From assembly GCA_049325255.1 (NCBI GenBank), contig JBMOMW010000057.1:3804-67803 (forward strand): a stretch of 64,000 nt of DNA, written 5' to 3'. Of the stretch, positions 23,265 to 57,431 are shown piece by piece. Positions within the stretch are counted from its first letter, which is position 1. Every line of letters starts with the position of its first letter. Source of the stretch: Pseudomonadota bacterium (lineage in GTDB: Bacteria > Pseudomonadota > Alphaproteobacteria > UBA11222). A program made the translations under genes and the position numbers. The notes beneath the pieces are model-generated. The model was not told where the DNA came from. It saw only the letters and a program-made list of their open reading frames with translations, and did not search any database.

Positions 23265-23354
23265 ATGTCGCCATTGCGGCTGTATTGATACCTTAACCCC
23301 CATGGGGTAATTTTCAGGAACGCTATCCGATTGCCCTGTTGCTCATAACGGGCC

Positions 23355-26341: not shown

Positions 26342-26362
26342 TATACCCTGTATAGGTATATA
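26342..26362. promoter_or_regulatory. CsoR-operator-like pseudo-palindrome ATACCCTGTATAGGTAT
   Basis: TACC-N-GGTA type inverted repeat immediately upstream of the csoR start. It lies in the divergent region towards the Cu-ATPase gene. Confidence 0.4.
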
Positions 26363-31500: not shown

Positions 31501-32611
31501 ATGAATATTCTGACGATTAATGCAGGCAGTTCCTCTGTCCGTTTTGAATTGTTCACAGTAGTTGATGACGTTCCGCAATCGTTGGGACAGGCAATGTCGG
31601 CGGCAGGTGATCCAACCACTCTGTTCGCGCAGTTGGCGGCAGAAGCGGGGCTGGGGATAGAACCACCGTCCGCCGTCGCCCATCGCTGGGTGCATGGCGG
31701 ACCACAGGTGCGCAAGGCGGCGTTGATCGACGCGAATATAGAAGCGGCGCTTGCACAGGCCGCGCCTCTGGCGCCGCTGCATGCGCCCGCAAGCCTGGCC
31801 TGGCTTGCCCATTGCCGCACAATCATGGGGCCAGATGTGCGCCAGATTGTCGTTCCTGACACAGCGTATTTCGCCAGCATGCCGGATGTTGCAGCTAATT
31901 ACGCCTTGCCGCGGGAACTTTCCGCGCTGCACGGCCTTCGCCGTTACGGCTTTCATGGTCTGGCGCATCAGTCCCATGGTCACCCAATGGCTTGCCAGCC
32001 GTGGCGGCGATTTTGGCGATGCAAAGGTGATTTCATTGCAATTGGGTGCAGGGTGTTCCATCACCGCGAGCCGTGGTGGCGCGCCCGTGGACACCTCGAT
32101 GGGCTTCACGCCGCTGGAAGGCCTGGTCATGGCCACCCGCGCGGGCGATGTGGATGCGGGTTTGCTGTTTTATCTGCAACGCGAAGCAGGGATCGATGCA
32201 GCGCAACTGGAAACGCTTTTACAAAAGGAATCGGGACTGCTCGGCCTTTCGGGCGTCAGTGGAGACATGCGGGTTCTGCTCGCCGCTGACAAGTCCGCGG
32301 CAAAAAGCGCCATTGCGCTTTATTGCTATCGCGCGAAAAAATATATTGGCGCCTATCTTGCGGTGCTGGGCGGCGCCGACGCTGTGCTGTTTGGCGGCGG
32401 CGTTGGTGAGAACAGCCCGGAAATCCGTGCGCGCATACTTGCAGGAATGGGATGGTGCGGCCTTAAGCTCGACACCGCCGCAAATCAGGCGCCAAAGTTG
32501 CAAGGCGGACGTATCAGCACCGCCAATAGCAAAATCGAAATCGCCGTGATCCGCGTCGATGAAGCGCACATCATGGCGCAAGCCGCCGCTGATCTGCTAC
32601 GGGGAAAGTAA
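31501..32611 (+). CDS. ackA: acetate kinase, interrupted by a +1 frameshift near 31975-31985 (pseudogene or sequencing error)
   Basis: ORF 31501-32289 matches the AckA N-terminus (MNILTINAGSSSVRF..., RYGFHGLAHQ) and then loses similarity. ORF 31751-32611 in the next frame continues VTQWLASRGG...ISLQLGAGCSI...SMGFTPLEGLVMATRAGDVD...GGGVGENS. Confidence 0.7.
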
Positions 32612-32741: not shown

Positions 32742-32755
32742 TTGATTTGCATCAA
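32742..32755. promoter_or_regulatory. perfect FNR box TTGATTTGCATCAA upstream of the MBL/beta-CASP gene
   Basis: Read directly. Identical 14-mer to the box at 44038. Confidence 0.6.
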
Positions 32756-32859
32756 GGAGCCAATTGCCGCTAACCTGTTATTTGTATAATCGTTGGGGTT
32801 ATAGGAAAGGGACAAATGGCGGTGACATATGAAATAGCCGGTATGATTCCAGCGCCAAC

Positions 32860-34251
32860 ATGACGCATCTCAACTTTCTTGGCGGTGTTGGAACTGTCAC
32901 TGGATCAAAATATCTGCTTGAGGCGGCCGGCCGGAAAATCCTCATTGATTGCGGGTTGTTTCAGGGGCTGAAGCAATTGCGGCTGCGCAACTGGGACAAG
33001 TTCCCGGTCAATCCCGCCCGGATCGATGCGGTGGTGCTGACCCATGCGCATCTTGATCATTCGGGCTATCTTCCGCTGCTCGTTAAAAACGGTTTCAGGG
33101 GGCCCGTGTTTTGTACGTCCGGCACCCGGGATTTGTGCGGCATCCTGCTGCCAGACTCAGGATATCTGATGGAACGCGACGCAGATTTCGCCAACCGGCA
33201 TGGTTTCTCCAAACACAAACCCGCATTGCCGCTATATACGGAGAAAGAAGCGCGCGCCTGCCTTGAGCAACTCGTTACAAAGAAATTTAACCGGCATTTT
33301 GATGTGACCCCTGAAATACAGGCCCAGTTCCATCCGGCGGGACATATTCTCGGCGCGGCGATCGTCACGCTCACCATAAACAAAACGAGGCTGGTCTTTT
33401 CCGGCGATCTTGGCAGGACCGGTGATCCGATCATGCACGATCCGGCGCATATTGCGCAGGCGGATTATCTGGTTGTTGAATCTACCTATGGCGACCGGAC
33501 GCACGAACCAGCCGATCCGCAGGATGCGCTGGCCGAAGTGATCGCCGCCACGGCGCAGCGCGGCGGTGTAATTCTGATCCCGACATTTGCCGTCGGACGG
33601 GCGCAGACACTGCTCTATCATCTGGAACAGCTCAAACGCGCGCGCCGCATCCCGGATCTGCCCGTCTATCTCGATAGCCCCATGGCGGTGAATGCAAGTG
33701 ACGTATTTTGCAACTATTTCGGCGAACATAGGTTGAATGCGGAACAGTGCCGTTCGCTGTGCGGCGTGGCGCGCTATGTGCGGGACGCCGAAGAATCAAA
33801 AAGCCTTGACCGGGACAAGATGCCAAAGGTGATCCTCGCGGCGAGCGGCATGGCGACCGGTGGCCGCGTCCTGCATCATCTCAAGGTCTTTGCGCCCGAT
33901 CCGCGCAACACGATCCTGTTTACAGGTTTTCAGGCTGCCGGAACCAGAGGCGCGGCGATGATGGCGGGGGCGCAAAGCGTCAAAATCCACGGCGGCTATG
34001 TACCGGTTCTGGCGGAGGTGAAAAATCTCCGGATGCTTTCGGCGCATGCGGACCGCCCGGAAATCCTGACCTGGCTCAGGCATTTTGACAGACCGCCACG
34101 CATGACATTTATCACCCATGGCGAACCGGTGGCGTCCGATGCGCTGCGGCTTGCGATTGAAGAACAGTTCAAATGGACCACGCGCGTGCCCGAGCATATG
34201 GAACGCGCTACGCTAGAGAACATTGAGCACACGCATGTCAAATCCACATAA
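32860..34251 (+). CDS. MBL-fold metallo-hydrolase with beta-CASP/RNA-metabolising domain (RNase J/CPSF-like)
   Basis: HAHLDHSG motif, beta-CASP region, C-terminal RMMBL-like segment. 463 aa. Confidence 0.8.
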   Translation: MTHLNFLGGVGTVTGSKYLLEAAGRKILIDCGLFQGLKQLRLRNWDKFPVNPARIDAVVLTHAHLDHSGYLPLLVKNGFRGPVFCTSGTRDLCGILLPDSGYLMERDADFANRHGFSKHKPALPLYTEKEARACLEQLVTKKFNRHFDVTPEIQAQFHPAGHILGAAIVTLTINKTRLVFSGDLGRTGDPIMHDPAHIAQADYLVVESTYGDRTHEPADPQDALAEVIAATAQRGGVILIPTFAVGRAQTLLYHLEQLKRARRIPDLPVYLDSPMAVNASDVFCNYFGEHRLNAEQCRSLCGVARYVRDAEESKSLDRDKMPKVILAASGMATGGRVLHHLKVFAPDPRNTILFTGFQAAGTRGAAMMAGAQSVKIHGGYVPVLAEVKNLRMLSAHADRPEILTWLRHFDRPPRMTFITHGEPVASDALRLAIEEQFKWTTRVPEHMERATLENIEHTHVKST

Positions 34252-35770
34252 TCTTCCCGGACATGCGCGGCCGCACACGCTACGCCTGCGGCGGCTGGGT
34301 ATCGACACGCATCAGGAGCTTGTCGTTTATATGCGGCAGGATTGTCATATCTGCCGGTCTGAAGGTTTTGCGGCGCAGGCGCGCATCCAGGTGACAGCCA
34401 ACGGCCACAGCATCATTGCAACACTGGGCAAGATCACCAGTGATTTGCTGGGTCATGGCGAGGCAAGCCTGTCTGAAAGCGCGTGGCGGCTGCTGGGGGT
34501 GGCGGAGGGCAGTGAGATTTCGTTCGCGCATCCGCCGCTTGTTGAATCGCTTGGCCTGATGCGGGGCAAAATCTATGGGCAGCGTCTGGATACGCGCGCC
34601 GCGCAGCAGATCATTCAGGACATTGTTGCGGGCCGCTATGCGGATGTGCATCTGTCCGCCTTTATCACGGCCTGTTCGGGGCGCGCCCTGAACCGCAACG
34701 AGATGGCCGCACTGACCAAGGCGATGGTTACAACAGGAAGCAGGCTGGACTGGGGAAACCAGCCGATTGCCGACAAACATTGTATTGGCGGCCTGCCAGG
34801 CAACCGCACAACGCCGATCGTGGTGGCGATTGCGGCGGCCTGCGGGCTTATCATCCCAAAAACCTCTTCACGGGCGATCACCTCTCCGGCGGGAACGGCG
34901 GATACGATGGAGACGCTGACCACCGTTGATCTGGATGTGGCCGCCATGCGCCGCGTGGTGGAGCAGGAGGGCGGCTGCATGGTCTGGGGCGGGGCTGTCG
35001 ATCTTAGTCCGGCCGATGATATTTTAATCCGTGTAGAGCGGATGCTTGATCTGGACAGTGAAGGTCAACTGGTTGCCTCTGTGCTGTCCAAGAAAATTGC
35101 CGCAGGCGCCACCCATGTGGTGCTTGATCTGCCCGTCGGACCAACCGCAAAACTGCGGACCATCACCGACGGGCATCATCTGACGAGCGCCCTGCGCGGC
35201 GTGGCCGAGGCCATGGGTCTGCATGTGCGTGTGACTGTAACGGATGGAACACAGCCGGTAGGGCGCGGCATTGGCCCCTCACTGGAGGCGCGTGACGTGC
35301 TGGCGGTGTTGCGCAATGATCCATCGGCGCCACAGGATCTGAGAGATCGCGCCGTCGATCTGGCGGCAATCCTGCTGGAGCTGGTGTTGCAGCTTTCTGC
35401 CAGAGAGGCCCTGGCCAAAGCCACGGAGGCGTTGCGCGATGGCAGCGCATGGCGGAAATTTGAGGCGATCTGCATGGCGCAGGGTGGCCTGCGCGAACCG
35501 CCACAGGCCACCCATAAACATCCGGTTCTGGCCGCGCATTCGGGTACGGTCACAAATATTGATAATCGCGTCCTGGCGAAAATCGCCAAGCTCGCAGGCG
35601 CGCCAAGCGCCAAGGCGGCGGGCCTTGAATTTCATACACCACTTGGCACGCAGGTTGCGGCAGGCATGCCGCTCTATACGGTGCATGCGCAATCCAGGGG
35701 TGAACTCGCCTATGCGCTTGACTATGTCCGCGCGCATCCCGGCGTAATCCGGCTGGAGGCCGACGCCTGA
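34223..35770 (+). CDS. thymidine phosphorylase-family protein (AMP phosphorylase-like, about 500-aa type)
   Basis: Glycosyl-transferase family 3 motifs (DKHCIGGLPGNRTTPIVVAIAAACG, SSRAITSPAGTADTMETL). Overlaps the MBL gene 3' end, suggesting an operon. Confidence 0.8.
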   Translation: MSTRMSNPHNLPGHARPHTLRLRRLGIDTHQELVVYMRQDCHICRSEGFAAQARIQVTANGHSIIATLGKITSDLLGHGEASLSESAWRLLGVAEGSEISFAHPPLVESLGLMRGKIYGQRLDTRAAQQIIQDIVAGRYADVHLSAFITACSGRALNRNEMAALTKAMVTTGSRLDWGNQPIADKHCIGGLPGNRTTPIVVAIAAACGLIIPKTSSRAITSPAGTADTMETLTTVDLDVAAMRRVVEQEGGCMVWGGAVDLSPADDILIRVERMLDLDSEGQLVASVLSKKIAAGATHVVLDLPVGPTAKLRTITDGHHLTSALRGVAEAMGLHVRVTVTDGTQPVGRGIGPSLEARDVLAVLRNDPSAPQDLRDRAVDLAAILLELVLQLSAREALAKATEALRDGSAWRKFEAICMAQGGLREPPQATHKHPVLAAHSGTVTNIDNRVLAKIAKLAGAPSAKAAGLEFHTPLGTQVAAGMPLYTVHAQSRGELAYALDYVRAHPGVIRLEADA

Positions 35771-35788
35771 AACTGTTGCAGGATTTTA

Positions 35789-35802
35789 TTTGACCCAGAT
35801 CA
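35789..35802. promoter_or_regulatory. FNR/FixK-type box TTGACccagATCAA upstream of the nitroreductase gene
   Basis: Read directly, about 130 nt upstream of 35931. Confidence 0.5.
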
Positions 35803-35930
35803 AATCCGCAGACCAGATCATGTATTAGGCTGCCCTTGTCGTAGGGAGGAATTCTTTATGCCGGCTCCATCCGTATTTTTTGATATTTCCAGCAGAACGC
35901 GGCGGTCTGTTCGCATGAAAAGTTCAGGAC

Positions 35931-36542
35931 ATGAATAAATCTTCGTTTGCGCCCAATCACCCCAATAATCCGATGAGCGTGATGGACGCAATTTATCATC
36001 GCCGCTCGGTGCGCGATTACACGCCTGAGAAAGTCAGCGAGGCCAGCATCCATATGCTGATGTACGCGGCCATCCAGGCGCCCACCGCCATGCATGAGGA
36101 ACCGTGGGCTTTTGCTGTTATTCAGGACCGGCACTTGCTGGACCGTCTGTCTGAAACCGCCAAGCGGACAATATGGCTGCAGGCGCAAGGCGAGGAAAAT
36201 TCAGGGCTGGCGCGACGCTCCGTAAATATTATCAGCGATCCGTCATACAATGTTTTCTATAATGCGGGCGCGCTGATTGTTATTTATGGCAAGCCGCTGG
36301 GGCCGTTCGTGGCTGCCGATTGCTGGCTTGCGGCGGAAAATCTGATGCTTGCCGCATGCGCCGCCGGACTTGGAACGTGCGTGATCGGTCTTGCCGTGCC
36401 GGCGCTCAATACACCCGAATGGAAGAATCTGCTGGATATTCCATTGGAAATGACGGCCCATGCGCCAATTCTGCTGGGCTATCCGGCCGGTACGCCACCA
36501 CCACCCGCCCGTAAATCTCCGGAAATGATATGCTGGAAATAA
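35931..36542 (+). CDS. nitroreductase-family protein
   Basis: Nitroreductase fold similarity (IYHRRSVRDY..., conserved C-terminal GxxGxG-like region). 203 aa. Confidence 0.8.
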   Translation: MNKSSFAPNHPNNPMSVMDAIYHRRSVRDYTPEKVSEASIHMLMYAAIQAPTAMHEEPWAFAVIQDRHLLDRLSETAKRTIWLQAQGEENSGLARRSVNIISDPSYNVFYNAGALIVIYGKPLGPFVAADCWLAAENLMLAACAAGLGTCVIGLAVPALNTPEWKNLLDIPLEMTAHAPILLGYPAGTPPPPARKSPEMICWK

Positions 36543-36557
36543 ATATTCCGGAATTGG

Positions 36558-37313
36558 TCAGCCGCTGTGCCTTATGTGTTTATCCAGCTTTTCATGCAGC
36601 ACACGGTGTGTTCCGCATTCATCAGCCATTGAGCATTCGCCGCACGCAAAGTTATCGGCCTTGCGCATATCCTGGATGGAGACGTGCGTGCCAGCAACCG
36701 TAATCCCGTGATCCCGCAGGGTTTGCAGCGTGCGCGAGAAAGTTTCCTTTTTGATCCGCAGACGCGAGGCGATCAGGGTTTTCGTGTAAGGCAATTCAAA
36801 CCCGTGCGGGTCGAAATTATACAGCACACAGAGCTTCTGAAGATAGCATGCGACCATCTGCGATGCGGACATGGTGGTAAGCTGTTCCGCCTCGAGCTGT
36901 GTGCCATGCAACCGGTCGGCGATGCTTGCCAGCAGTTTCTCCGCCATATGGTCGAAATCCTTGATATGCTCGCGCATCCAGGAAATCGGGATTTCGAGTA
37001 GTGAGCAATCTTCCACTGCGCGGGCATTCATCTGATGCGCGTCCTGACGGGCAAGCACTTCATCGGCATTGATGCTGTCCCCGGCTATCAGAATATTGCT
37101 GGTGACTTCGTGTCCGCCCGGCGTCTCACGGAAGATTTGCATGGCGCCCCGGCAGATCACATAAAAATGGGTGATCTTGTCCCCGTGCATAAACAGGCAC
37201 TGTCCGCGTTTGCAGATGATGATCCGGCTGTTGCAAACCAGCAGGTCGCCGTCCGCCCTGCTGATATCCGAAAACAGGGGAAGCGCCTGAAGTGTATCCA
37301 ATGCGGTAGTCAT
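36558..37313 (-). CDS. Crp/Fnr-family transcriptional regulator (paralog 2) with C-terminal CxxC-x5-C-x2-H extension
   Basis: About 80% aa identity to 14126-14881. Same E--SR HTH (ETFSRTLQTLRD). C-terminal FACGECSMADECGTH. Confidence 0.85.
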   Translation of the reverse strand: MTTALDTLQALPLFSDISRADGDLLVCNSRIIICKRGQCLFMHGDKITHFYVICRGAMQIFRETPGGHEVTSNILIAGDSINADEVLARQDAHQMNARAVEDCSLLEIPISWMREHIKDFDHMAEKLLASIADRLHGTQLEAEQLTTMSASQMVACYLQKLCVLYNFDPHGFELPYTKTLIASRLRIKKETFSRTLQTLRDHGITVAGTHVSIQDMRKADNFACGECSMADECGTHRVLHEKLDKHIRHSG

Positions 37314-37401
37314 GTCGCCCCCAATGGCCAGTTTCTACGCATGGCTCACAGGTTGCACCCGGCGGGGGAAATCCGTCAACTATAAAATGATCTTCAGGAA
37401 A

Positions 37402-37415
37402 TTGACTGTAATCAA
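37402..37415. promoter_or_regulatory. FNR box TTGACtgtaATCAA upstream of fnr paralog 2 and divergent from the small Met-rich protein gene
   Basis: Read directly, about 90 nt upstream of the fnr-2 start codon. Confidence 0.55.
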
Positions 37416-37727
37416 TTCATTAGCTGGCAATTGTAATTAGTTTGAGAATGTCTTTTCGTAACGTCACGGAAGGATGTTAACCCAACCCCACCCTTTCCCT
37501 GGATGTAATCGTTGCATTCCGGGGATTTTTTTGTGCTGCGCGCTTGTTAGTGCGCCTGCTCAAAGCCAGCATCGCGGCGGCGGTGTGCGCCTTCCAATTT
37601 TATCAATTCCAGCGTGACCGGCGCCGGGAAAATGAGTTGATTAAAATCAAAGCCATCCAGGCCTCGTAATGATCAAATTCACATTGGTGGAGTTTTAATG
37701 GTTCACATAACAGGAAGGAGCATCAGG

Positions 37728-38030
37728 ATGAATAACATTCTAAAAATACTGGCGGCCGGCGCTATTCTGGCGCTTCCGCTGACAGCTAGCGCTGCAGACA
37801 CAGCCGCGCAACCAGGCACGCCGCCGCAAAACACGCCTGTCTATCCCTGCTGGGATATGATGAAGGATGGCAAGATGACGCCAATGCGCGGCATGTGGCA
37901 TGGAACCGGTCCCGGCAATGCGCAAGGCGGCATGATGATGATGAACGCCCAGGAAGTGCAGCGCATGCAAAAGGAAATCGAGACATTGCGCAAGCAGGTA
38001 ACAGAAATGCAGAACAAACAGCCAAAGTAA
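37728..38030 (+). CDS. small secreted Met-rich protein with C-terminal coiled coil
   Basis: Strong RBS AGGAAGGAG. Signal peptide MNNILKILAAGAILALPLTASA. MMKDGKMTPMRGMWHG...GGMMMM motifs. C-terminal heptad-like QRMQKEIETLRKQVTEMQ. Confidence 0.5.
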   Translation: MNNILKILAAGAILALPLTASAADTAAQPGTPPQNTPVYPCWDMMKDGKMTPMRGMWHGTGPGNAQGGMMMMNAQEVQRMQKEIETLRKQVTEMQNKQPK

Positions 38031-38054
38031 CAACCTCTGCTGGAGGCTCAAAAA

Positions 38055-38621
38055 ATGCAAGTCCCCTATGAAATTACATTTGACGGCATGGACCCCTCGG
38101 ACGCCGTGCGTGCGCGGGTTCAAAAAGAAATCGACAGGCTGGAGCGGTTCCATGACCGCATCACCTCGTGCCGCATCGCCATCACGGCGCCGGGTAAACA
38201 CAAGCGTCAGGGGGGCCTGTACGATGTAAGAATTTTCATGGCCATCCCCGGTGGTGGCGAAGTCAGTGCGCAACGCAATCCTGTCAACAATCATGCGCAT
38301 GAAGATGTCTATGTTGCGATCCGTGACGCCTTCGCGGCTGCGCGCCGTCAATTGCAGGACAAGGACCGCAAGATCGAAAATAACGTCAAGGCGCATGAGA
38401 CGCCGCCGCATGGCCGTATCGCCCGCATATTCTATTATGAAGGCTATGGCTTCATCGAAACCCCGGACGGCGGCGAGGTGTATTTTCATCGCAACAGCGT
38501 AACCGGTACGAAGTTTGAGAAGCTGGAAGCCGGGCATGAGGTGCGTTTTACCGAGGAACTTGGCGAAAAGGGACCGCAGGCAAGTGTTGTGCATCTGATT
38601 GGTAATCACCATCCGGTTTGA
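38055..38621 (+). CDS. ribosome hibernation factor (HPF/RaiA, sigma-54 modulation protein domain) fused to a C-terminal cold-shock domain
   Basis: N-terminal ~100 aa are HPF-like (YEITFDGMDPSDAVRARVQKEIDRLERFHDRITSCRIAI). C-terminal GRIARIFYYEGYGFIETPDGGEVYFHRNSV is a CSD (RNP1-like GYGFI). Confidence 0.75.
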   Translation: MQVPYEITFDGMDPSDAVRARVQKEIDRLERFHDRITSCRIAITAPGKHKRQGGLYDVRIFMAIPGGGEVSAQRNPVNNHAHEDVYVAIRDAFAAARRQLQDKDRKIENNVKAHETPPHGRIARIFYYEGYGFIETPDGGEVYFHRNSVTGTKFEKLEAGHEVRFTEELGEKGPQASVVHLIGNHHPV

Positions 38622-38681
38622 TCATCTGGTAAATGCACGAATCTCAAATGCTCTTCGAGAGTGGGCGCGCGTGTGGGCCGT

Positions 38682-38930
38682 TCATCCGTTCACTTTCTGA
38701 AGCAGGTAAGCCACGGCGCCATCAAGCGTTGCAAGCTTTGGATAATCGCTTTCCGGAATTTCGACATTGAGCGACTTGTGCAGGGCGATGACGAAATTGA
38801 GAAAGTCCATGGAATCGATATCAAGCTCATCGTGCAGATCCGCGCCGGGATCGGCGTTCTCGGGCGCACATCCTGGTGCGACACTCTCAAGCTCGGCAAA
38901 TACCCGCGCCAATATTTCATCCCGGGTCAT
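38682..38930 (-). CDS. acyl carrier protein-like (phosphopantetheine-attachment DIDSMD motif)
   Basis: 82-aa acidic four-helix-type sequence with LDIDSMDFLNFV. Last gene of an operon; its start sits 4 nt from the E2 stop. Confidence 0.55.
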   Translation of the reverse strand: MTRDEILARVFAELESVAPGCAPENADPGADLHDELDIDSMDFLNFVIALHKSLNVEIPESDYPKLATLDGAVAYLLQKVNG

Positions 38931-40138
38931 AGCTTTTCAGGCTCCTGCAAAAGTGCTGCGATCTCCGACAGAAAGCGCGCGCCGAGATGGCCGTCTGTCA
39001 CCCTGTGATCGGCGGCAAGGCTTGCGAGCATGACAGGCTCTACCGCAAGTCCGCCATCGGCATGTGCGACGGGCGCAAGGTGCGGTGCGCCAAATCCGAC
39101 AATCGCCACCTGCGGCGGAAAGATAACGCCAAACACGCCATCAACGCCACGTTCTCCAAGCGCCGTAACCGTGATCGCCGGGTCTGACATTTCGGAGCTT
39201 CGAAGGGATCCCGCGCGCACCCGCGCAACCAGATCGCGCAAGGCGATCATGATTTCATCCAGCGATTTTTGATCACAGTCGTGGATGGCGGGCGCAATCA
39301 GGCCGCCGCCGCGTATGGCGATGGCCGGACCAATATGAACGCCTTGCGCCTGCATGAAGCCGTCTTTCAAATAAAAGCCGTTAAACCTGGGATAGGCTTT
39401 CACGGCCTGCGCCACCGCTTTCAGCAGAAGCACATTCATCAGCAGGCGCTTTTCCGGCTTGCGGCTGCGATTGGTATCGGCAAGCCATTCGGTGGCGCAT
39501 CGTAAATTGATTTGCGTACTGAGATAATAATGCGGGATTTCCCGTTTTGACCGCGCCATGGCGGCGGCGATCGCATGGCGCATTTTGTCGAAATCCAGAC
39601 CGGGCTTTGTTTTGCGCGCAGGCGCAGGCGCGGGCCCGGCTGCGGCGCCACGCACCGCATCGGCACGCAATATGGCGCCGCCAGGTTTTCCCGGCGTAAT
39701 CGCGGCAAGATCAACCCCATGTTCGCGGGCATAGGCGCGGGCGGCGGGCGACGCCTTGACCCGCGCCTGCGCAGACCTGGCGATAGGCGTCAGCGGGGCC
39801 TGCGCAACTGGCGGTGGCCCCGTCTGGACGGCAGCCATGGCGGCCATGGCAGGCTCTGGCGCCAGGGCAGGTGCGGTTATGGATGTCGCGGCTTCTTCTT
39901 TATCCGTAGCTATCAGCGCAAGCGGCATCCCAACCGGAACGGTGGCCCCTTCCTGCACCAGCCATTGATTGAGGACGCCTGCGGCAAAAATTTCAATCTC
40001 GATCGCGCCTTTCTCGGTTTCGACAACCGCGACAATATCACCGCGCGCGATGGCGTCGCCCGGCTTCTTCAGCCATTCGGCCAGCGTACCCGCCTCCATA
40101 TCCGCCCCCAAAGAAGGCATGCGGAATTCATACATCAC
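38927..40138 (-). CDS. 2-oxoacid dehydrogenase E2 component (dihydrolipoamide acyltransferase)
   Basis: N-terminal lipoyl domain ([12 protein letters not shown]), E3-binding region, C-terminal catalytic motif DHRVTDG. Confidence 0.85.
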
Positions 40139-42132
40139 TGGCTCATAAGCTTTTGCGCCGCAGCAATAATGGCCGGTATCTGCGGCAGCGCGGCTTCTTC
40201 AAGGTGGCGCGGATAGGGGATGGGAACCTCTGCGCTGCACACCCGCGCGACCGGCGCGTCCAGTTCCCAGAAGGCCTGCTCAACGATGACGGCGAAAATC
40301 TCCGCCGAAATACTACCTGTGCGCCAGCCCTCGTCAACGATCAGGGCGCGGCGCGTTTTGGCGACGGAAGCGATGATCGTTGCGGTGTCGAGCGGACGCA
40401 AAACGCGCAGATCGATCACCTCGGCATTGATGCCCTGGGCGGCAAGCGCGCCGGCCGCAGCAAGTGTTTTGGGAAGCGATCCACCATAGGTAATCAGCGT
40501 CACATCGCTGCCGGGGCGGCGGATGGCGGCTTTGGAAATATTCACCGCGCCCGCATTCTCCGGCAATGCGCCTTGCGTATTATACAGCATGACATGCTCG
40601 AAAATCAGAACCGGATCCGGGTCTTCCAGCGCCGTCAGCACCATGCCGAACACATCTTCATGCGTGGCGGGCGCAAGCACCTTGATGCCGGGAATATGCG
40701 CGAACCACCCCTCAAGACTGTGTGAATGTTGTGCGGCAAGCTGGCGTCCCGCGCCTGTCGCCATGCGCAGCACCAGCGGAACGCCGAATTGCCCGCCCGA
40801 CATATGCCGGATGGTGGCGGCGCTGTTGACGATCTGATCAAGCGCGAGAAGCGAAAAATTAACCGTCATCACCTCGACGATGGGCCGCATGCCGGACATT
40901 GCAGCGCCTATGCCCGCACCCACAAAACCGGACTCGGAAAGCGGCGTGTCGCGTATCCGCTCAGGCCCGAATTCGGCGAGCATGCCTTTCGACACCGCAT
41001 AACAGCCGCCATAGCGGCCAATATCCTCGCCCATCATAAAAACCTGCGGATCGCGCATAAACGCCGCACGCAATCCTTCGCGCGCCGCATCCCGATAGGT
41101 CAGTTTACCCGCTGGCGCAGTGATTACTGACGGAACAGCGGAGGCGGCTGTGCTGTAAACATGCTCTGCCAGCGTTTCAACAGGTTCCCACGGCGCCGCA
41201 TCAGCGAAACTTACGGCGTCCTTGATCTCTGCGTCTACCGCCTGCTCAACCGTCTGTAGTGCTTCGTCATGGGCGAGATGCGCATCGTGCAGCCAGGCGC
41301 GAAACCGCAGCAGCGGGTCTTTTGCTTTCCAGGCTTCGACCTCCGCCTTGTCACGATACAGTTGCGGATCAAACATGGAATGTGCGCGGAAGCGATAGGT
41401 CCGGCATTCAAGGAAATAGGGGCCATCTCCATTGCGAATGGCCGCGACGGCGCGGTGGGCAGTGGCGGCGAGCGCTACGACATCCATGCCATCGATCACC
41501 TCCGACGGCATATTGTAGCTCTGCGCCTTGAGGTGAATGTCCGGTTGCGATTCAGAAAGATCGAGCCTTGTTCCCATCGCATACAGGTTATTCTCGCAGA
41601 CGAACAGCACCGGCAGTTTCCAGAGCGCTGCAAGATTGAGGCTTTCATGAAACTCACCCTCGGCTGCCGCGCCCTCGCCGAAGAAGCAGGCAGCTATGCT
41701 GTCCTGTCCCTGCATCTTGTCGGCAAGGGCTGCGCCAACCGCAAGCGGCAGGCCGCCGCCGACAATGGCGTTGCCGCCATAAAACCGCGTAGTCTTGTCG
41801 AAAAGATGCATGGAGCCGCCGCGCCCGCCGCTGCACCCCGCCGCCTTGCCAAACATCTCGGCCATAATGGCGCGCATCGGAATGCCGCGCGCCAGGGCAT
41901 GACCATGCTCGCGATAGGTTGAAACAATGGTGTCATCGGTGCGCAATACCCGCATGATGGCTGCGGCGATGGCTTCCTCGCCAATCGCCAGATGCAGAAA
42001 GCCGCGAATTTTTTCCGCCTGATAAAGCTCGGCGCATTTTTCCTCAAAACGCCGGATGCGCAGCATCTGCCGGTAGAACTCCAGCAGTTCATCATGGGTC
42101 AGACGGAATTTCGGCCCTGTCGCCGCTGTCAT
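40135..42132 (-). CDS. fused E1 alpha/beta component of a pyruvate/acetoin-type 2-oxoacid dehydrogenase (TPP-dependent)
   Basis: 665 aa. N-terminal half has the E1-alpha TPP motif ([31 protein letters not shown]). C-terminal half is E1-beta/transketolase-like. Confidence 0.85.
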
Positions 42133-43886
42133 GGCGCGCCCTCTAATGTCGATATATCGCCTTCCGGCAAGCCAAGTTCGCGCGCCTTAAGCAACCGGCG
42201 CATGATCTTGCCACTGCGCGTCTTTGGAAGATTCCCGGTAAACTCCAGAAACTTTGGCGCGACAGCGGGCCCAAGGCGCTTGCGCGTATATCCCAAAATA
42301 TCTTTTCTGATTTCCTCGCTTGGCGCAATGCCAGGTTTGAGTGCGACGAAAGCCTTCACAACTTCGCCTGCCACCTCATCCGGCAACCCGATGACAGCGG
42401 CTTCCGCGATGGCTGGATGTTCGGTCAATGCGCTTTCAACCTCGAACGGGCCGATAAGATGCCCGGCCGATTTGATAAGATCGTCTGCCCTTCCGACGAA
42501 CCAGAAATATCCATCTGCATCCTGCATCGCCAGATCACCGGTCAGATACCAGCCGTTACGAAAATGTTTCTGATAACGTTCTTCCTCATGCAGATACCCG
42601 CGAAACATCGAAGGCCAGCCTGTCTTAAGCGCCAGCTCGCCCACCGTCATCGGTTTGCTGGTGATCTCAATGCGGCCTTCTTCAGTCGCATTAACGATTG
42701 CCGCCTCCATCCCTGGCAACGGACGTCCCATGGAACCAGGTTTCACGTCCATCGACGCGTAATTGGCAATCATGATGCCGCCGGTTTCCGTCTGCCACCA
42801 ATTGTCGTGGAACGGCAGGCCAAATTTTTCGTTGCTCCAGACCACGGCGTCGGGATTAAGCGGCTCGCCGACGCTCGCCATAAAGCGCAGACTATGGCGG
42901 GTTGGCGGGGGCACGGAATCTTCGCTTTTCATCAGCATACGGATGGCGGTCGGCGCGGTATACCAGATTGTCACCTTTTCTTCCTGGAGAATGCGGTACC
43001 AGCGCGCGGCGTCAAATTCGGCCTCATCGACGATCATGGTGAGCCCATTGGTCAGCGGGGCGATAATACCGTAAGAGGTGCCCGTCACCCAGCCGGGGTC
43101 GGCCGTGCACCAGAAAATATCGTCCGGGTGCATATCCAGCGCAAATTGCCCGGTCACGTGATGGGCGATCACTGCGGCATGTACGTGGATGGCGCCTTTG
43201 GGCCGCCCGGTCGTGCCGCTGGTGAAATGCAGCAGCGCGCGGTCCTCCGGCATGGTCTGCACCAGCGCCGGTCCGCCGCCGGCTTTTTGCAGGGCCTGGC
43301 TCCAGCCAATCACGCCGTCTTCCTTGGAATCACCGGCATCAATAAGGATAATGTGTTTCAGCGATGGCAGCTCCCGCCACCAGTTCGCCACCTTGCGCTC
43401 AAAGAGCCGCTGGGTGGTGACAAGCACGGCGGCGTCTCCGCGCTCCATCCGTGTGCGAATGGGTTCCGGCCCGAAGGCCGAAAACATCGGGCAGAACACG
43501 CTGCCGTTTTTCAGAGTTCCGAGCGCCGCGATATAAAGTTCAGGAACCCGGCCAGCCAGGACGAAAACAGCATCGTCTTTGCCAACGCCAAGCGCCTTCA
43601 GCGCATTGGCGAAACGATCTGTCCCGGTAGAAAGTTCTGCATAGCAAATGTCACGCCGTACATTGTCTTTTGAGATCCAGCGAATGGCGGTCTTGCCGCC
43701 AAGACCGTGAAGGACGTGCCGGTCGACTGCCTCATAGGCAATATTCAACCTGCCATCCGGCAAACCGTCAAGATCACCGCGCGCTTCCGCCCACGAAAAA
43801 TTCCGGCGTGCTTCCTCGTAGTTCTCGAGGTTGGGCGGTATGGCGAAAGAACCGCCCTTGCGGATGATAGGTGTTTCATTTGGCAC
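42129..43886 (-). CDS. AMP-forming acyl-CoA synthetase (acetyl/propionyl-CoA synthetase-like)
   Basis: AMP-binding motifs [10 protein letters not shown], YGxTE-like and a C-terminal lysine region. First gene of a 4-gene operon with 4-nt ATGA overlaps. Confidence 0.85.
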
Positions 43887-44037
43887 GGCGCGGCGGCGCC
43901 TTTTTTATTAGGGTAAAACGGCCCTGTTGAAGCAGCATGCGACCGCGCGCCTTCGCCGAATCGCCACAACAGCCCTCCAAGCACCAATTCCCAATATATT
44001 CCTGAAAAATGATCCTAGACAGGGCACCTCTATATTT

Positions 44038-44051
44038 CCTTGATTTGCATC
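44038..44051. promoter_or_regulatory. perfect FNR box TTGATTTGCATCAA in the divergent promoter between the acyl-CoA synthetase operon and the APH-like kinase gene
   Basis: Read directly. Identical to the 32742 box. Confidence 0.6.
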
Positions 44052-44123
44052 AACTTCTGGTACAATGAATCGATGTTGCCAAGCAAAGCCGCCAGTGGCC
44101 GATTAAAAAGACGACGGTAACAA

Positions 44124-45161
44124 TTGATCAGGCCCCAGGAAATCTCTATCGAAGAAAAGGTGCGATTCCTGCAGCATCCGGCTGCCTATGGGCAACCGGG
44201 CACAGCGGAAGTGCTGGTCAAGGAAACGCATATGTCATGGGTGTTTCTGACCGGCGCGCGCGTTTACAAACTCAAGAAACCAGTCCGTTATGATTTCCTT
44301 GATTTCAGCACCCTTGATGCGCGCGAAAGAAATTGCCGCGAAGAAGTCCGGCTCAACCGCCGGCTGGCGGAAAATGTCTATCTCGGCGTTCTGCCGCTAA
44401 CGCTGAGCAGTAAAGGCGAACTTGCCATCGGCGGTGAGGGGCCATCGGTCGACTGGCTCGTCTTGATGCGCCGCCTCCCCTTGGATCGCATGCTGGATCA
44501 AGCCATCGAGAGGAGCACAGTCAGCCGCGCTGAAATCATCTCCGTCGCAGACCGGCTTTCGGATTTTTACGGACTTGCGCCGCCTGCGGAACTGACGCCG
44601 GAGGCTTATGTAGAGCAGTTCATCCGCGAGCAGGCGCAGACGCGGGCGGTGCTCACAGACCGGACTTTTGACTTGGACGGCGCGCGGATCGGGAAAATTC
44701 TTGGCGGCATAGAGGATATATTGTTTGCGCAATCTGAACTTCTGAAGGCGCGTGTTGAAGGTGGCAGGATCATTGAGGGACATGGGGATCTGCGGCCTGA
44801 ACATGTATGTCTCAATACGCCCCCGGTCATCATCGATTGCCTGGAGTTCAACCGGGGATTCCGGCTGGTTGATCCGGCCGACGAACTGACTTTTCTTGGC
44901 CTTGAATGCGAGCATCTCGGGGCGGGCTGGATTGGACCAGCGCTGTTAAACCGCTACACTGAGCGGCTTGGCGATACGCCATCGGCCAGGCTTATCGCGT
45001 TCTACCGCAGCCACCGCGCCTGCCTGCGGGCGCGCCTGTCACTGGTTCATATTCTGGAGCACGACCCGCGCAAACCGGAACACTGGCTGCCCCTGGCGCG
45101 CCACTATCTGGAACTGGCCGATACGACCGAACTCAATCCCGGCTTTCCAGAATCTCATTGA
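44124..45161 (+). CDS. aminoglycoside-phosphotransferase-like kinase (Rv2004c-like N-terminal family)
   Basis: HGDLRPEHV catalytic-loop motif. N-terminal SWVFLTGARVYKLKKPV...FLDFST...R motif is typical of the dormancy-associated APH-like family. Start could be the ATG near 44230. Confidence 0.65.
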   Translation: MIRPQEISIEEKVRFLQHPAAYGQPGTAEVLVKETHMSWVFLTGARVYKLKKPVRYDFLDFSTLDARERNCREEVRLNRRLAENVYLGVLPLTLSSKGELAIGGEGPSVDWLVLMRRLPLDRMLDQAIERSTVSRAEIISVADRLSDFYGLAPPAELTPEAYVEQFIREQAQTRAVLTDRTFDLDGARIGKILGGIEDILFAQSELLKARVEGGRIIEGHGDLRPEHVCLNTPPVIIDCLEFNRGFRLVDPADELTFLGLECEHLGAGWIGPALLNRYTERLGDTPSARLIAFYRSHRACLRARLSLVHILEHDPRKPEHWLPLARHYLELADTTELNPGFPESH

Positions 45162-46113
45162 CCGATCCTCCCTCGCGCAACACGCGGATCGTTTCGGCAA
45201 ACAGCGGCGCGGCGCTGACGATTTTGACATGGCCTGCAAGCACATCTTTGCCGAGCCGGAACGGCGGAAGGGAGTCGGTGATGAATAACCTGGCGAGATC
45301 GGGATGGCGCAGGGTGCCTGCTGCATCACCCGTAAACAGCCCATGGGCCGCAAACCCATAAACCGCCGTTGCGCCCGCTTGGCGGCAAGCCTGAGCCGCG
45401 CGAAGCATCGTTCCGCCGCCGCCGATCAGATCATCGAGGATCAGAACCGCCGCGCCGCTTACGTCGCCGGCCAGAAGCGTGCCGCTGACTTTTCCGGCGC
45501 TGCGGCGCTTGTCCATGAAGGCGCCGCCAACGGGCCGGCCAAGCGCCGTTTCCAGCGCCTCGCGAAACAGTTGCGCGCGCTTTACGCCGCCGGGGTCGGG
45601 CGATGCGACCACCAGTGGTTCGCTGCCAGCAAGTTCGCCTGCGCATTTGGTAAATAAACGCCTCGTGTCGAGATGAACCGTCCGGCAGCGAAAGGCGTTC
45701 TGGAAGGCGACGATATTGTGGACTTCCAGCGTGACGACGCAGTCAGTCCCAACGGCTTCCAGAAGCTGTGCGATATAGCGTGTTGTCACCGGATCATGGC
45801 TTTTGGTCTGCCGGTCCTTCCGGGCATAGGCCAGATAGGGAATGACCGCCGTTACGCGCGCCGCGCCGTTTTCCTTCATCGTCGCGATAAAAAAAAGCAG
45901 CCGGCAAAGCTTGTCGTTTGGCGACTGCTCCGGACCGCCATACAGGCTTTGGATAATATAGACATCCTCGCCGCGCACGCTCACCAGCGGCCGCGCCTTG
46001 TGCTCGCCATCCTCAAACTCGCGCTCTTCGTGCGCATCAAGCGTGACGCCAAGCGCCCTTGCTACCTTTTCGCCGAAGGTCCGGCTGGCATTGAGAGCAA
46101 ACAGTTTCATCAC
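45133..46113 (-). CDS. ribose-phosphate pyrophosphokinase-like protein (Prs family, divergent)
   Basis: Prs-like N-domain (FEDGEHKARP) and PRPP-binding loop VLILDDLIGGGGTM. 326 aa. Confidence 0.75.
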   Translation of the reverse strand: MMKLFALNASRTFGEKVARALGVTLDAHEEREFEDGEHKARPLVSVRGEDVYIIQSLYGGPEQSPNDKLCRLLFFIATMKENGAARVTAVIPYLAYARKDRQTKSHDPVTTRYIAQLLEAVGTDCVVTLEVHNIVAFQNAFRCRTVHLDTRRLFTKCAGELAGSEPLVVASPDPGGVKRAQLFREALETALGRPVGGAFMDKRRSAGKVSGTLLAGDVSGAAVLILDDLIGGGGTMLRAAQACRQAGATAVYGFAAHGLFTGDAAGTLRHPDLARLFITDSLPPFRLGKDVLAGHVKIVSAAPLFAETIRVLREGGSVNEILESRD

Positions 46114-46781
46114 CGTGTACGTCTGGCGCCGGGTGGGGGATGCGGAGCGGGCGCCTGCGCCATTAGCGCGCGCATCTCTTCGTCGTCTATCTGATGGAAA
46201 TCCTGATAATAAAGGCCGATTGCCCCGAAATAGTCATGCGTTTCAAGGCAGACGATCTCGTCGACCGTGTGCTTCAGGGCTGCGATCGTGTCCGCCGGCG
46301 CGACCGGCGCCGCTAGCACGAGCTTTTTTGGGGCAAGCGCCCGGACGGCGAGAATGGCCGCTTTGATTGTTGCGCCCGTCGCTATGCCGTCATCGACGAT
46401 AATTGCCGTTTGCCCCGGGATGCTGACGCGCGGCCTGCCAGCAAGATAGGTCTGCTGGCGGCGTTTGATTTCCGCAAGCTGCCGCTGCTTCTCTGCCTCG
46501 ATATAGGCAGGGGAAATATCAAGTTGGGCTATAATATCCTCGTTGAGGACAAGCTGTGGTTTTTCGCCGTCGACTACGGCGCCGATGGCAAGCTCCGGCT
46601 GCGATGGCGCGCCAAGCTTGCGCACGATAATGAGGTCGAGCGGCGCGTTGAGCAGCTTCGCGATTTCAAGCCCGACGGGCACACCGCCGCGCGGCAGCGC
46701 CAGCACGCAAGCATTCTTATTCTTGTAACCCATCAGCCTGGCCGCCAGGCGTTGGCCTGCTTCTTCACGGTTGGCGAACAT
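46110..46781 (-). CDS. phosphoribosyltransferase-domain protein
   Basis: PRTase type I PRPP-binding motif TAIIVDDGIATGATIKAA. 4-nt overlap with the downstream prs-like gene. Confidence 0.75.
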   Translation of the reverse strand: MFANREEAGQRLAARLMGYKNKNACVLALPRGGVPVGLEIAKLLNAPLDLIIVRKLGAPSQPELAIGAVVDGEKPQLVLNEDIIAQLDISPAYIEAEKQRQLAEIKRRQQTYLAGRPRVSIPGQTAIIVDDGIATGATIKAAILAVRALAPKKLVLAAPVAPADTIAALKHTVDEIVCLETHDYFGAIGLYYQDFHQIDDEEMRALMAQAPAPHPPPGARRTR

Positions 46782-47455
46782 CAGGAAATCCCCTTGCCTG
46801 GGCGCAAATGCGCGAGGAACCAGTCGCGAGCCAGTTCTATGACCTGCTCGAGCGCGCCCTGTTCCTCGAACAGATGGGTGGCGCCCGGCACAATCTCAAG
46901 CGCTTTGGCGCAACGCAGCTCTGCGAGAGCCGCCTGATTGAGAGAAAGCACCTCGAAATCTTGCCCGCCGGCAATGAGTAAAGTGGGCGCCGTGACGCGC
47001 CGCAACGCTGTGCCGGCAAGATCGGGCCGGCCGCCACGCGAGACCACCGCGCGAAACATGTCCGGTGCGCGCGCCGCCGTGACAAGCGCCGCCGCCGCGC
47101 CGGTGCTCGCGCCGAAAAGACCCAGGGGCAGGGCTGCCGCCGAAGGCTGTGTCACGACCCATTCGGCCGCCATTGACAACCGCCCGGCCAGCAGTTCGAT
47201 ATCGAACACATGCGAACGGCTGGCCGCTTCCTCCTCGCTCAGAAGATCAAAAAGCAACGTGCCGAAACCTGCCTCCCGCAGGGCGTTGGCGACGTGCATA
47301 TTGCGCGGGCTGAGCCTGCTGCTGCCGCTGCCATGGGCAAACAGGACAAGGCCATGCGCGGCCCTGGGGATATCAAGCGTACCCGGCAGCCCAAGCGGCG
47401 GTAACCGAACTTCCTCAAGCGTTGCGGATTGCATGGATTTACCCGACATAGGCAC
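46781..47455 (-). CDS. alpha/beta hydrolase (dienelactone hydrolase family)
   Basis: GLVLFAHGSGSS and the nucleophile elbow GLFGASTGAAAAL. Start/stop overlap with the PRTase gene. Confidence 0.7.
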   Translation of the reverse strand: MPMSGKSMQSATLEEVRLPPLGLPGTLDIPRAAHGLVLFAHGSGSSRLSPRNMHVANALREAGFGTLLFDLLSEEEAASRSHVFDIELLAGRLSMAAEWVVTQPSAAALPLGLFGASTGAAAALVTAARAPDMFRAVVSRGGRPDLAGTALRRVTAPTLLIAGGQDFEVLSLNQAALAELRCAKALEIVPGATHLFEEQGALEQVIELARDWFLAHLRPGKGIS

Positions 47456-47499
47456 TTTTTATCCTTAGATATGTAGCGCATCAGGCGCAATGCACTGGC

Positions 47500-49122: not shown

Positions 49123-49209
49123 CCGTTATCTCCCTGAATTGTGGCGTGGCGGGCGATTTCGTCACAATGGAAATAAAGTATCGAAAAAAATCTGATATTG
49201 AATTGATTT

Positions 49210-49223
49210 CGGTCAAGGCAGAC
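49210..49223. promoter_or_regulatory. FixK/FNR-type box TTGATttcgGTCAA in the groEL/hsp20 divergent promoter
   Basis: TTGA-N6-TCAA core read directly between 49122 and 49277. Confidence 0.45.
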
Positions 49224-49276
49224 GCGGCTCGCAGTACTTAGTTTGTAATCCTAACCCCCTAACAGGAGAAACAGAC

Positions 49277-52432: not shown

Positions 52433-52508
<76 letters not shown>

Positions 52509-57356: not shown

Positions 57357-57431
<75 letters not shown>

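Follow-up and report, generated by a model that had tools for sequence, protein, structure and literature searches.

FNR-type boxes at the promoters of a 64-kb alphaproteobacterial locus, and two Crp/Fnr-family proteins as candidate readers

The window considered here, the whole stretch of 64,000 nucleotides analysed from contig JBMOMW010000057.1, carries two identical 14-mers of the kind bound by FNR, and these raise the question of whether they and their relatives nearby are operators of a single regulon, and of which protein would read them. A preliminary description of this DNA had proposed one regulon under the two Crp/Fnr paralogs encoded in the window. Scanning the window, together with related loci fetched via homologs, we find that the boxes are a real, non-random family located at promoters, and that the nine intergenic members are probably the operators of a dimeric FNR-class Crp/Fnr activator at class II promoters and constitute one regulon.

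The exact 14-mer TTGATTTGCATCAA is present twice, at 32742-32755 and 44040-44053 (the second had been placed at about 44038), with none expected from 100 dinucleotide-preserving shuffles. The 60 nt flanking the two copies are unrelated, matching at 11–18 of 60 positions, and the copies are therefore independent sites; an origin of the pair in a repeat or mobile element was ruled out on the same grounds. The relaxed FNR consensus TTGAYNNNNRTCAA (TTGAY-N4-RTCAA, the strict box in what follows) has ten matches, starting at 21187, 23252, 26212, 32742, 35790, 37402, 37637, 44040, 49203 and 55695, compared with 0.30 expected and a maximum of two in any of 100 shuffles. Nine of the ten are intergenic on a gene map built from open reading frames (ORFs) and Pfam/NCBIfam matches, the non-coding fraction of the window being 13.8% (binomial P=1.6e-7). 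The sole coding match, at 26212, lies inside a 91-aa CsoR-family gene that was initially hidden by a 100-aa ORF cut-off; the match translates to the conserved ILTQIN, is identical to the 35790 sequence read in reverse complement, and is probably due to chance, since a single coding occurrence is compatible with the ~0.3 expected per window. Sites with two mismatches are spread like background, with 5 intergenic and 18 coding. A palindromic position weight matrix (PWM) trained on 23 intergenic boxes from the window and the related loci scores the nine intergenic sites at 15.8–23.8 bits, with a clean gap to everything else in the window, and finds no further box 5′ of the phosphoketolase gene, crp/fnr paralog 1, or the L,D-transpeptidase gene. 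A raw ranking of all 5-N-5 palindromes is uninformative, as GC-rich palindromes dominate it and its counts are not composition-corrected, and we therefore rely on the shuffle test and the PWM score gap. The nine boxes, with the repressor gene that holds the tenth, are as follows.

21187-21200, no strand assigned: box TTGATTTGGATCAA, PWM score 18.6, in the divergent region between the His-rich/cupredoxin/MCO/CopB operon (− strand) and lemA-TPM-TPM (+ strand).
23252-23265, + strand: box TTGATTTGCGTCAA, 5′ of a CFA-synthase-like gene and a YHS gene.
32742-32755, + strand: first copy of TTGATTTGCATCAA, 5′ of an operon (32860-35770) encoding an MBL/beta-CASP RNase-like protein and a thymidine/AMP-phosphorylase-like enzyme.
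35790-35803, + strand: box TTGACCCAGATCAA, 5′ of the nitroreductase gene (35931-36542).
37402-37415, no strand assigned: box TTGACTGTAATCAA, centred 95.5 nt upstream of crp/fnr paralog 2.
37637-37650, + strand: box TTGATTAAAATCAA, 5′ of an operon (37698/37728-38621) for a small secreted protein and a fusion of HPF with a cold-shock domain (HPF-CSD).
44040-44053, no strand assigned: second copy of TTGATTTGCATCAA, in the divergent promoter between acsA-pdhE1-E2 (− strand, 38927-43886) and the APH-like gene (+ strand, 44124-45161).
49203-49216, no strand assigned: box TTGATTTCGGTCAA, between groEL-DLH hydrolase-PRTase-PRPP synthetase (− strand, 45133-49122) and hsp20 (+ strand, 49277-49807).
55695-55708, + strand: box TTGACGCGGATCAA, 5′ of a flavin monooxygenase-like gene (55752-57299).
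26058-26333, − strand: csoR-family repressor gene, 91 aa (PF02583, E=1e-30), with a C...H-x3-C pattern, upstream of a YHS-domain P-type ATPase gene.

All of the related boxes named in the preliminary description exist, displaced by 1–7 nt (35790 for 35789, 23252 for 23251, 49203 for 49210), and three strict boxes had been overlooked: 37637, which has the highest PWM score in the window (23.8), 55695, and the coding match at 26212, which limits the statement that every hit is intergenic to nine of the ten. A supposed variant before the Cu-ATPase gene, TTGACTTGGCTCAA at 26419, is rejected as an FNR site; it has two mismatches and scores 11.8, below a coding match at 12.1 and thus at coding background, well below the range of the real sites, and a perfect CsoR-type palindrome lies near it.

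The spacing of the boxes to putative promoter elements was examined by profiling TAnnnT hexamers on both sides of each. Of 18 oriented flanks, six have such a hexamer exactly 22 nt past the end of the box, where the background would give 0.34 at any one position (Poisson P=1.6e-6), and the same peak is seen in the related loci L084, L087 and L089 (8 of 28 flanks, P=8e-9) and also in the 80 loci containing APH-like genes described below. Class II sites of CRP and FNR are centred at −41.5 relative to the transcription start, and a gap of 22 nt between a 14-bp box and a −10 hexamer puts the box centre at this position; with the same likelihood as the single regulon, and as part of one judgement, we suggest that the boxes behave like class II FNR/CRP activator sites. 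At least one oriented −10-like hexamer at such spacing, which serves as a proxy for a mapped start, accompanies six of the nine boxes. Box 49203 has TACTTT at 49175-49180 on the groEL side and TAGTTT at 49239-49244 on the hsp20 side, both at exactly 22 nt. Box 55695 has TAAAAT at 55731-55736 (22 nt), box 35790 has TAGGCT at 35826-35831 (22 nt), box 23252 has TACCTT at 23289-23294 (23 nt), and box 44040 has TAGGAT at 44012-44017 in the acsA direction (22 nt); in L084 the boxes upstream of the nitroreductase and acsA orthologs have TAAGGT and TATTCT respectively, each at 22 nt. At box 37402 the canonical 22-nt hexamer, TAGTTT (37438-37443), is on the + strand and points away from paralog 2. Beyond it, the + strand from 37416 to 37636 consists of ~200 nt with no convincing ORF. 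An Rfam scan of the window reports three tRNAs only and nothing in the two-box region at 37.3–37.7 kb, and segment 37445-37636 differs from the closest relative by a 35-nt indel (deleted there). Transcription from the + strand promoter at 37402 could run into the small-protein/HPF operon, as from a second promoter in tandem, or could yield an unannotated small RNA.

Two sets of related loci were compared with the window. The first (L001-L080) contains 80 genomes fetched via the APH-like protein (best identity 69%; Parvibaculum, Methylocella, Methylocapsa and others), and here the APH-like ortholog is preceded, at a distance of 66–125 nt, by a strict box in 20 of the 80 loci, among them 13 of the closest 18; of 19 boxed loci examined, 10 have the box within a divergent promoter shared with the PRTase and/or DLH-hydrolase genes. 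No Crp/Fnr protein is encoded within 10 kb of the APH-like ortholog in any of the 80, so that these loci cannot test the co-occurrence of regulator and box. The second set was fetched via regulator homologs that are 60–86% identical, and comprises L081, L084, L087 and L089. L081 (regulator 82% identical) is syntenic with the window at 14–25 kb and keeps the box 5′ of lemA, identical to that at 21187 (centred 68.5 nt from the lemA start), and the counterpart of box 23252 5′ of the CMAS ortholog. L084 (86%) has a rearranged gene order and five boxes, each of them intergenic: one at hsp20/acsA, one separating ADH from the hyp100-HPF operon (the equivalent of box 37637), one upstream of the nitroreductase gene, and two at other positions. 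L087 (64%) has six, again all intergenic (phasin, hsp20/YkuD, MgtC, PepSY, the regulator/CBS operon and a USP gene), and L089 (60%) has three (SDR-PhaC, regulator/DUF5765 and an N-ATPase operon). All 16 strict boxes of this set are intergenic, and the comparison of promoters with coding sequence that had been proposed as a check, made here on the window and fetched loci as an approximation to the whole genome, bears out the enrichment (9/10 and 16/16).

The same gene families are boxed across these rearranged islands, namely hsp20 (upstream in both L084 and L087), acsA, nitroreductase, hyp100-HPF, lemA and CMAS, with USP, phasin, PhaC and N-ATPase as further families in the second set, and the regulator family co-occurs with such boxes in 4/4 loci; the boxes have thus moved along with both the genes and the regulator. 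Closer to the window, a 94%-identical relative (L091/L092) conserves box 37637 and its flanks perfectly, and one half-site of its counterpart to box 37402 is degenerate (TTGACTGTGATCAT). Spacers in the window and in the Parvibaculum and Methylocella loci favour yTGs (TTGATyTGsrTCAA). The boxes of L087 and L089 are almost invariant, reading TTGATTGCA[AG]TCAA then A, with the spacer and one flanking base included; this constraint is far tighter than the FNR consensus and hints at readout of the spacer by the regulators of this clade. In L089, an operon for an N-type ATPase (AtpR/gene1-containing, 11492-17904) lies directly 3′ of an FNR-type box with TAACAT at 22 nt, adjoining the clade regulator, an arrangement that suggests hypoxia control of an alternative ATPase.

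The window contains exactly two Crp/Fnr genes.

14126-14881, − strand: crp/fnr paralog 1, 251 aa, 76% identical to paralog 2, with a syntenic ortholog in L081.
36558-37313, − strand: crp/fnr paralog 2, 251 aa, with a cNMP-binding-like sensor domain and a helix-turn-helix domain; it lies within the island and has a box upstream.

The two proteins share an identical recognition helix, ETFSRTLQTLRD, with the FNR-type E--SR signature (E190-T-F-S193-R194). Neither has an N-terminal Cys cluster, there being none within the first 45 residues (which start MT(A/T)ALDTL...), and both have a C-terminal Cys triad, which in paralog 2 is C224-x2-C227-x5-C233 plus H236. In an alignment of 36 family sequences (53–86% identity) there is no variation at E143, C156, T191, S193, R194, C224, C227 or C233, and conservation reaches at least 90% at C54, C162 and H236. 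Scores against curated models are far below the cut-offs: 57.0 and 58.3 bits versus 228 for the NCBIfam PRK11161 Fnr model, 68–76 versus 211 for FtrB, and 31.6–34.6 versus 300 for FixK (Caulobacter). The label of fnr paralog in the preliminary description thus does not fit, and the paralogs, judged from their sequences, cannot strictly be called FNR, FnrN or FixK. Because they fail the defining features of those proteins and share a C-terminal Cys motif that is Bacillus-like in position, we regard them as a regulator variant, probably a new subtype and none of the described ones. No FixL-like PAS/heme kinase was detected in the window; the sole kinase/regulator pair, a hybrid kinase (3058-6567) with a LuxR-type regulator (2148-3116), was considered as a FixLJ candidate and set aside as unconvincing, since no PAS/heme domain was detected in it and it is flanked by amide/urea ABC transporter and formamidase genes.

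A profile search of 1.84 billion representatives (50%-identity clusters) returned 174 clusters at E<=1e-30. The tail C-x2-C-x4-6-C is present in at least 111 of the top 150 clade representatives (15/15, 13/15, 13/15 and 14/15 in the first four rank bins), an N-terminal Cys cluster in 1/150, and E..SR in nearly all. The members are essentially all metagenomic and unnamed, their representatives are singletons, and they are mostly alphaproteobacterial; the clade is absent from the PLSDB plasmids (best match at most 30% identity), and an exact-sequence lookup of paralog 2 gave no record. Some members are named ‘dissimilatory nitrate respiration regulator’ by JGI. Among solved structures the closest matches are to an uncharacterised cNMP-binding-type protein (3h3z/3fx3), DNR (3dkw, E=2e-17) and A. 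fischeri FNR (~4e-12), none of which covers the Cys tail. In a model of paralog 2 made with AlphaFold2 (pLDDT 77.8), confidence is lowest at residues 138-146, a hinge aligned to the region of Asp141 in B. subtilis Fnr (discussed below), and at the extreme C-terminus.

A mechanism can be proposed from these elements, in which a dimer of paralog 1 and/or 2 would bind a box whose centre lies ~41.5 bp before the transcription start at a sigma-70-type promoter, contact RNA polymerase directly and replace the −35 element. The palindromic symmetry of the box allows a single site to act on two divergent promoters, as would be the case at groEL/hsp20. At least nine promoters would in this way be coupled, including those for acsA with the PDH-like E1/E2, for GroEL and Hsp20, for the hibernation factor-cold-shock fusion, and for a nucleotide-salvage module (PRPP synthetase, PRTase, the thymidine/AMP-phosphorylase-like enzyme and the MBL/beta-CASP RNase), as well as those for the nitroreductase, LemA/TPM, CFA synthase and flavin monooxygenase. 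Paralog 2 would be tied to the regulon through boxes 37402 and 37637, and the box upstream of its gene could provide autoregulation or a feed-forward loop. The trigger may be oxygen or redox limitation, read by the C-terminal Cys triad as an Fe-S or thiol switch. We infer the binding, the activation rather than repression, and the signal alike from sequence; the signal is most plausibly low oxygen or redox state, and we lean towards the two local paralogs as the proteins that bind the boxes.

How firmly this reading can be held depends on several rivals, of which chance is the simplest. A strict box did arise within the csoR coding sequence, and ~0.3 are expected in any such window, but an origin of the boxes as a compositional feature or dispersed repeat with no regulatory role has a negligible probability and is effectively refuted by the enrichment (ten boxes, nine of them intergenic), the fixed spacing to −10 hexamers and the unrelated flanks of the identical copies, together with conservation at orthologous promoters in rearranged loci. 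The identity of the binder is less secure. What stands of the proposal of one regulon under two Crp/Fnr paralogs is a conserved promoter-located family, its class II geometry and the matching E--SR helices; its assignment to these two proteins is what we infer, and boxes also occur where there is no such regulator within 10 kb. Thus the same box lies 5′ of the APH-like/PRTase module in many genomes of Alpha-, Beta- and Gammaproteobacteria that have no clade member at that distance, and it is therefore not specific to the clade and could be read by any regulator of the E--SR type. FnrN and FixK have essentially one recognition consensus (PMC4999443), family regulators with similar helices are computationally indistinguishable (PMC8510549), and, with 64 kb of the genome scanned, an unseen FnrN or FixK encoded elsewhere could be the real binder. 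We nonetheless think it distinctly unlikely that a canonical FnrN/FixK/Anr-type regulator from outside the window occupies the boxes while the local paralogs bind elsewhere or play a minor role: the paralogs have the E--SR helix needed for TTGAT recognition, strict boxes surround the regulator in all four loci fetched through it, its own gene is boxed in L087 and L089 (74–118 nt upstream), and the near-invariant boxes of these two loci suggest a dedicated regulator-operator pair.

Other observations also count against local paralogs acting at class II promoters. E190 is present in 27 of 36 family members and replaced by Ala in the other nine. Three of the nine boxes (21187, 32742 and 37637) have no TAnnnT at 21–23 nt, on either side in the case of 21187, and box 32742 has a weak −10 only (TTATTT/TATTTG at 32778-32784); in the APH-like direction of box 44040 no suitably spaced −10 was seen, and the −41.5 placement takes −10-like hexamers as its only reference. 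Furthermore, the promoter of paralog 2 seems to fit repression or a different arrangement better than class II activation; the only good −10 in its direction is TATAGT at a gap of 17 nt, and its autoregulation could therefore be negative or of different architecture. It is also possible, though we consider it rather unlikely, that the regulon is real and its signal is not oxygen but NO (the signal of Dnr/NnrR), a small effector in the cNMP-like pocket, or metal/thiol oxidation; the C-terminal cysteines might then bind structural zinc or form disulfides instead of holding an O2-labile Fe-S cluster. DNR and the cNMP-binding-type protein among the nearest structures, the JGI label, and the copper-homeostasis genes and CsoR-type operators interleaved with the regulon, the paralog 1 promoter included, are all compatible with such a signal. 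It is opposed by the absence of nir, nor and nos from the window and related islands, by a gene content matching hypoxia and anoxic-persistence sets such as the lxa locus of Burkholderia, and by alignment of the C-x2-C with C227 and C230, two of the [4Fe-4S] ligands in B. subtilis Fnr (PMC3520743).

The link to copper arises from the operators. A perfect palindrome, ATACCCTGTATAGGTAT, is located at 26343-26359, 10 nt upstream of the csoR start, and imperfect related copies, ATACCCGTATAGAGTAT and ATACCTGCATAGAATAT, are at 14902-14940 in the intergenic region between paralog 1 and the DUF6629 gene; the orthologous region of L081 contains a perfect ATACCAATGCGGGGTAT. The paralog 1 upstream region has these two CsoR-operator-like palindromes and no FNR box. 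This suggests that paralog 1 and/or the DUF6629 gene is under CsoR-type (possibly copper) control, linking metal sensing to the FNR-box regulon.

The source of this DNA appears to be an uncultured Hyphomicrobiales-like alphaproteobacterium. Its ArgG is 94–96% identical to proteins of alphaproteobacterial metagenome-assembled genomes (MAGs) and ~84–86% to those of Hyphomicrobiales, Aestuariivirgaceae, Afifellaceae and Bauldia; the GC content of the window is even (51–62%), and a PLSDB plasmid search gave no close DNA relative of the island. Other genes in and near the box-bearing region are listed here.

38055-38621, + strand: HPF (S30AE)-cold-shock-domain fusion, 188 aa, also in L084 (7670-8236) and L091 (3080-3646).
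44124-47455, APH-like gene on the + strand and the rest on the − strand: APH-like/PRPP synthetase/PRTase/DLH-type hydrolase module, conserved in L001-L080.
40135-42132, − strand: PDH-like E1, in which the alpha (E1_dh) and beta (Transket_pyr/Transketolase_C) parts are joined in one polypeptide of 665 aa.
52436-52508 (− strand), 55514-55587 (+ strand) and 57360-57431 (− strand): tRNA genes, at the right edge of the box-bearing region.
57524-57853, − strand: BrnA-type antitoxin gene, at the same edge.

An FNR box and the gene for a secreted protein of ~100 aa, of unknown family, precede the HPF-CSD fusion in every case, and homologs of the fusion are present in 12 of the 80 APH-like loci. In these loci the APH-like gene is accompanied by PRPP synthetase in 73, PRTase in 50 and DLH hydrolase in 39, and the module extends through Alpha-, Beta- and Gammaproteobacteria, Acidobacteriota, Opitutaceae and Desulfobulbaceae MAGs. 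The APH-like protein itself (345 aa) has no Pfam match and only a weak match to APH(3′) (E=0.005). The E1 gene is in one operon with acsA and a lipoyl E2 gene and has no adjacent E3 gene; the same acsA-pdhA arrangement is annotated on plasmids of Methylocystis, Sinorhizobium and Burkholderia. The acetate kinase gene 3′ of phosphoketolase is split over two frames (31501-32611, + strand), with ORF 31501-32289 covering profile positions 85-183 and ORF 31751-32611 positions 198-392; it is either a frameshifted pseudogene or the result of a sequencing or assembly error, and the PWM scan shows no FNR box for the phosphoketolase/ackA pair. At the right edge, box 55695 is just downstream of the tRNA gene at 55514-55587.

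As a textbook-style FNR/FixK/Anr regulon, the box family has its main value in annotation: it ties ~25 genes of mostly vague function, including those for the APH-like kinase, PRPP synthetase/PRTase/DLH, the MBL RNase, the AMP/thymidine-phosphorylase-like enzyme, HPF-CSD and LemA/TPM, into what would be one stress/hypoxia-persistence programme in an uncultured alphaproteobacterium, and it suggests that lxa-like islands reach well beyond Burkholderia. The more interesting by-product is a sizeable clade of regulators with a C-terminal Cys triad where Bacillus Fnr holds its oxygen-sensing cluster. If these proteins bind Fe-S, then FNRs with a C-terminal cluster are not confined to Gram-positives, and the mode of sensing could then be studied in a compact regulator-operator pair from this clade, whose TTGATTGCARTCAA boxes are nearly invariant in some lineages.

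The design itself is known, its nearest counterparts being the lxa locus of Burkholderia cenocepacia and the rhizobial FnrN/FixK regulons. The lxa locus (Sass et al. 2013, PMC3721108; Ibrahim et al. 2015, PMC4505428; PMC9104464) comprises 50 genes induced by low oxygen; an Fnr/Anr-like motif, TGA-N6-TCA, recurs at 17 intergenic points, and the gene for a Crp regulator, BCAM0287, is embedded in it (PMC3721108). Its paralogous regulators appear redundant, and an anr1 anr2 double mutant is lethal under anoxia, according to the lxa papers. The cluster in the window is similar in having boxes at many intergenic points (seven at 32.7–55.7 kb and two more at 21–23 kb) and an embedded Crp/Fnr gene, paralog 2. 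Families common to both are alpha-crystallin, nitroreductase, acetate kinase, metal-dependent RNase and cation ATPase, with PHA synthase, acetoacetyl-CoA reductase and USPs present in L087 and L089. However, the lxa locus is betaproteobacterial and USP-rich whereas the window has no USPs; the lxa regulators keep the N-terminal FNR cysteines (PMC4505428), which those of the window lack, having the C-terminal triad instead; and the list of lxa genes does not include the acsA-PDH, PRPP/PRTase/APH-like, GroEL and HPF-CSD modules.

The FnrN/FixK regulons belong to the same class of organisms and use the same box, the consensus being TTGANCNNGATCAANG, or the ‘anaerobox’ TTGA-N6-TCAA (Tsoy et al. 2016, PMC4999443). 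As in rhizobia there are two paralogous regulators (the rhizobial ones with boxes in their own promoters), and hsp20 has a box; in R. leguminosarum, which has duplicate, autoregulated fnrN genes, hsp20 has been demonstrated to be microaerobically expressed in an FnrN-dependent manner from an anaerobox centred at −87.5 from the start codon (PMC11784457), and the corresponding distance from box 49203 is 67.5 nt. The regulators differ, as FnrN has an N-terminal Cys cluster plus a central Cys, FixK has no cluster and is under FixLJ, and the paralogs fit neither; the window contains none of the classical targets (fixNOQP, hup/hyp, nif, denitrification genes). The resemblance to class II promoters of E. 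coli FNR lies in the TTGAT-N4-ATCAA palindrome, the E--SR helix and the ~−41.5 site seen as a 22-nt gap, although similarity to FNR is low (57–58 bits with a cut-off of 228) and the paralogs are without the N-terminal [4Fe-4S] motif.

More distant comparisons are informative in different ways. For Dnr/NnrR, which sense NO through heme and control denitrification, similarity to the DNR structure 3dkw is at the family level only, and no denitrification genes (nir, nor, nos) were found in the window, L081, L084, L087 or L089. The hypoxia-induced DosR regulon of M. tuberculosis includes alpha-crystallin/Hsp20, nitroreductases, PRTase/hydrolase-type proteins, a cation ATPase and ribosome/energy shutdown functions, a functional repertoire that seems analogous to that of the window; the APH-like module presumably resembles the PRTase/hydrolase members of that regulon. 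DosR is a NarL-type response regulator, and both regulator and operator are entirely different from those of the window. Desulfovibrio HcpR2 is a Gram-negative Fe-S Crp/Fnr protein with a different DNA motif. RedB (PMC9603854) was considered and set aside as irrelevant, having a non-palindromic AT-rich motif and no cysteines.

The comparison with Bacillus Fnr bears most directly on the Cys tail. B. subtilis Fnr, which acts with ResDE, coordinates its cluster through C227, C230, C235 and D141 (PMC3520743), and in a 2026 review the cluster is N-terminal in Gram-negative FNRs and in the C-terminal DNA-binding domain of Gram-positive ones (PMC12937710). The Bacillus Fnr sequences used were retrieved with a query that matched P0241 [Bacillus subtilis] at 99%. 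In both families a Cys triad occupies a C-terminal extension just after the DNA-binding domain, and profile-profile alignment with hhalign places C224-x2-C227 onto C227-x2-C230 of the B. subtilis protein, with the third Cys one residue further off (C-x2-C-x5-C versus C-x2-C-x4-C in Bacillus). The Asp141 column corresponds to H/Q144, with the invariant E143 within two positions, in a low-confidence part of the alignment. Overall similarity is slight (BLASTP 21% identity, E=5e-5, in the sensor domain only; profile-profile identity 19%), and the family is found in Gram-negative hosts and is nearer to DNR and FNR; the resemblance of the tails is likely convergent or very ancient. We put forward tentatively, as a proposal that could well prove wrong, that in this unnamed Gram-negative clade the C-terminal C-x2-C-S-x3-5-C, probably with C156/C162 or E143, carries a [4Fe-4S] cluster or acts as a thiol switch and in this way senses oxygen, NO or redox state; that the clade is the dedicated master switch of lxa-like anoxic-persistence islands, cross-wired here to copper via CsoR-type operators; and that it reached the Bacillus Fnr solution independently, a reading that contradicts the current textbook division between N-terminal clusters in Gram-negative and C-terminal clusters in Gram-positive FNRs (PMC12937710).

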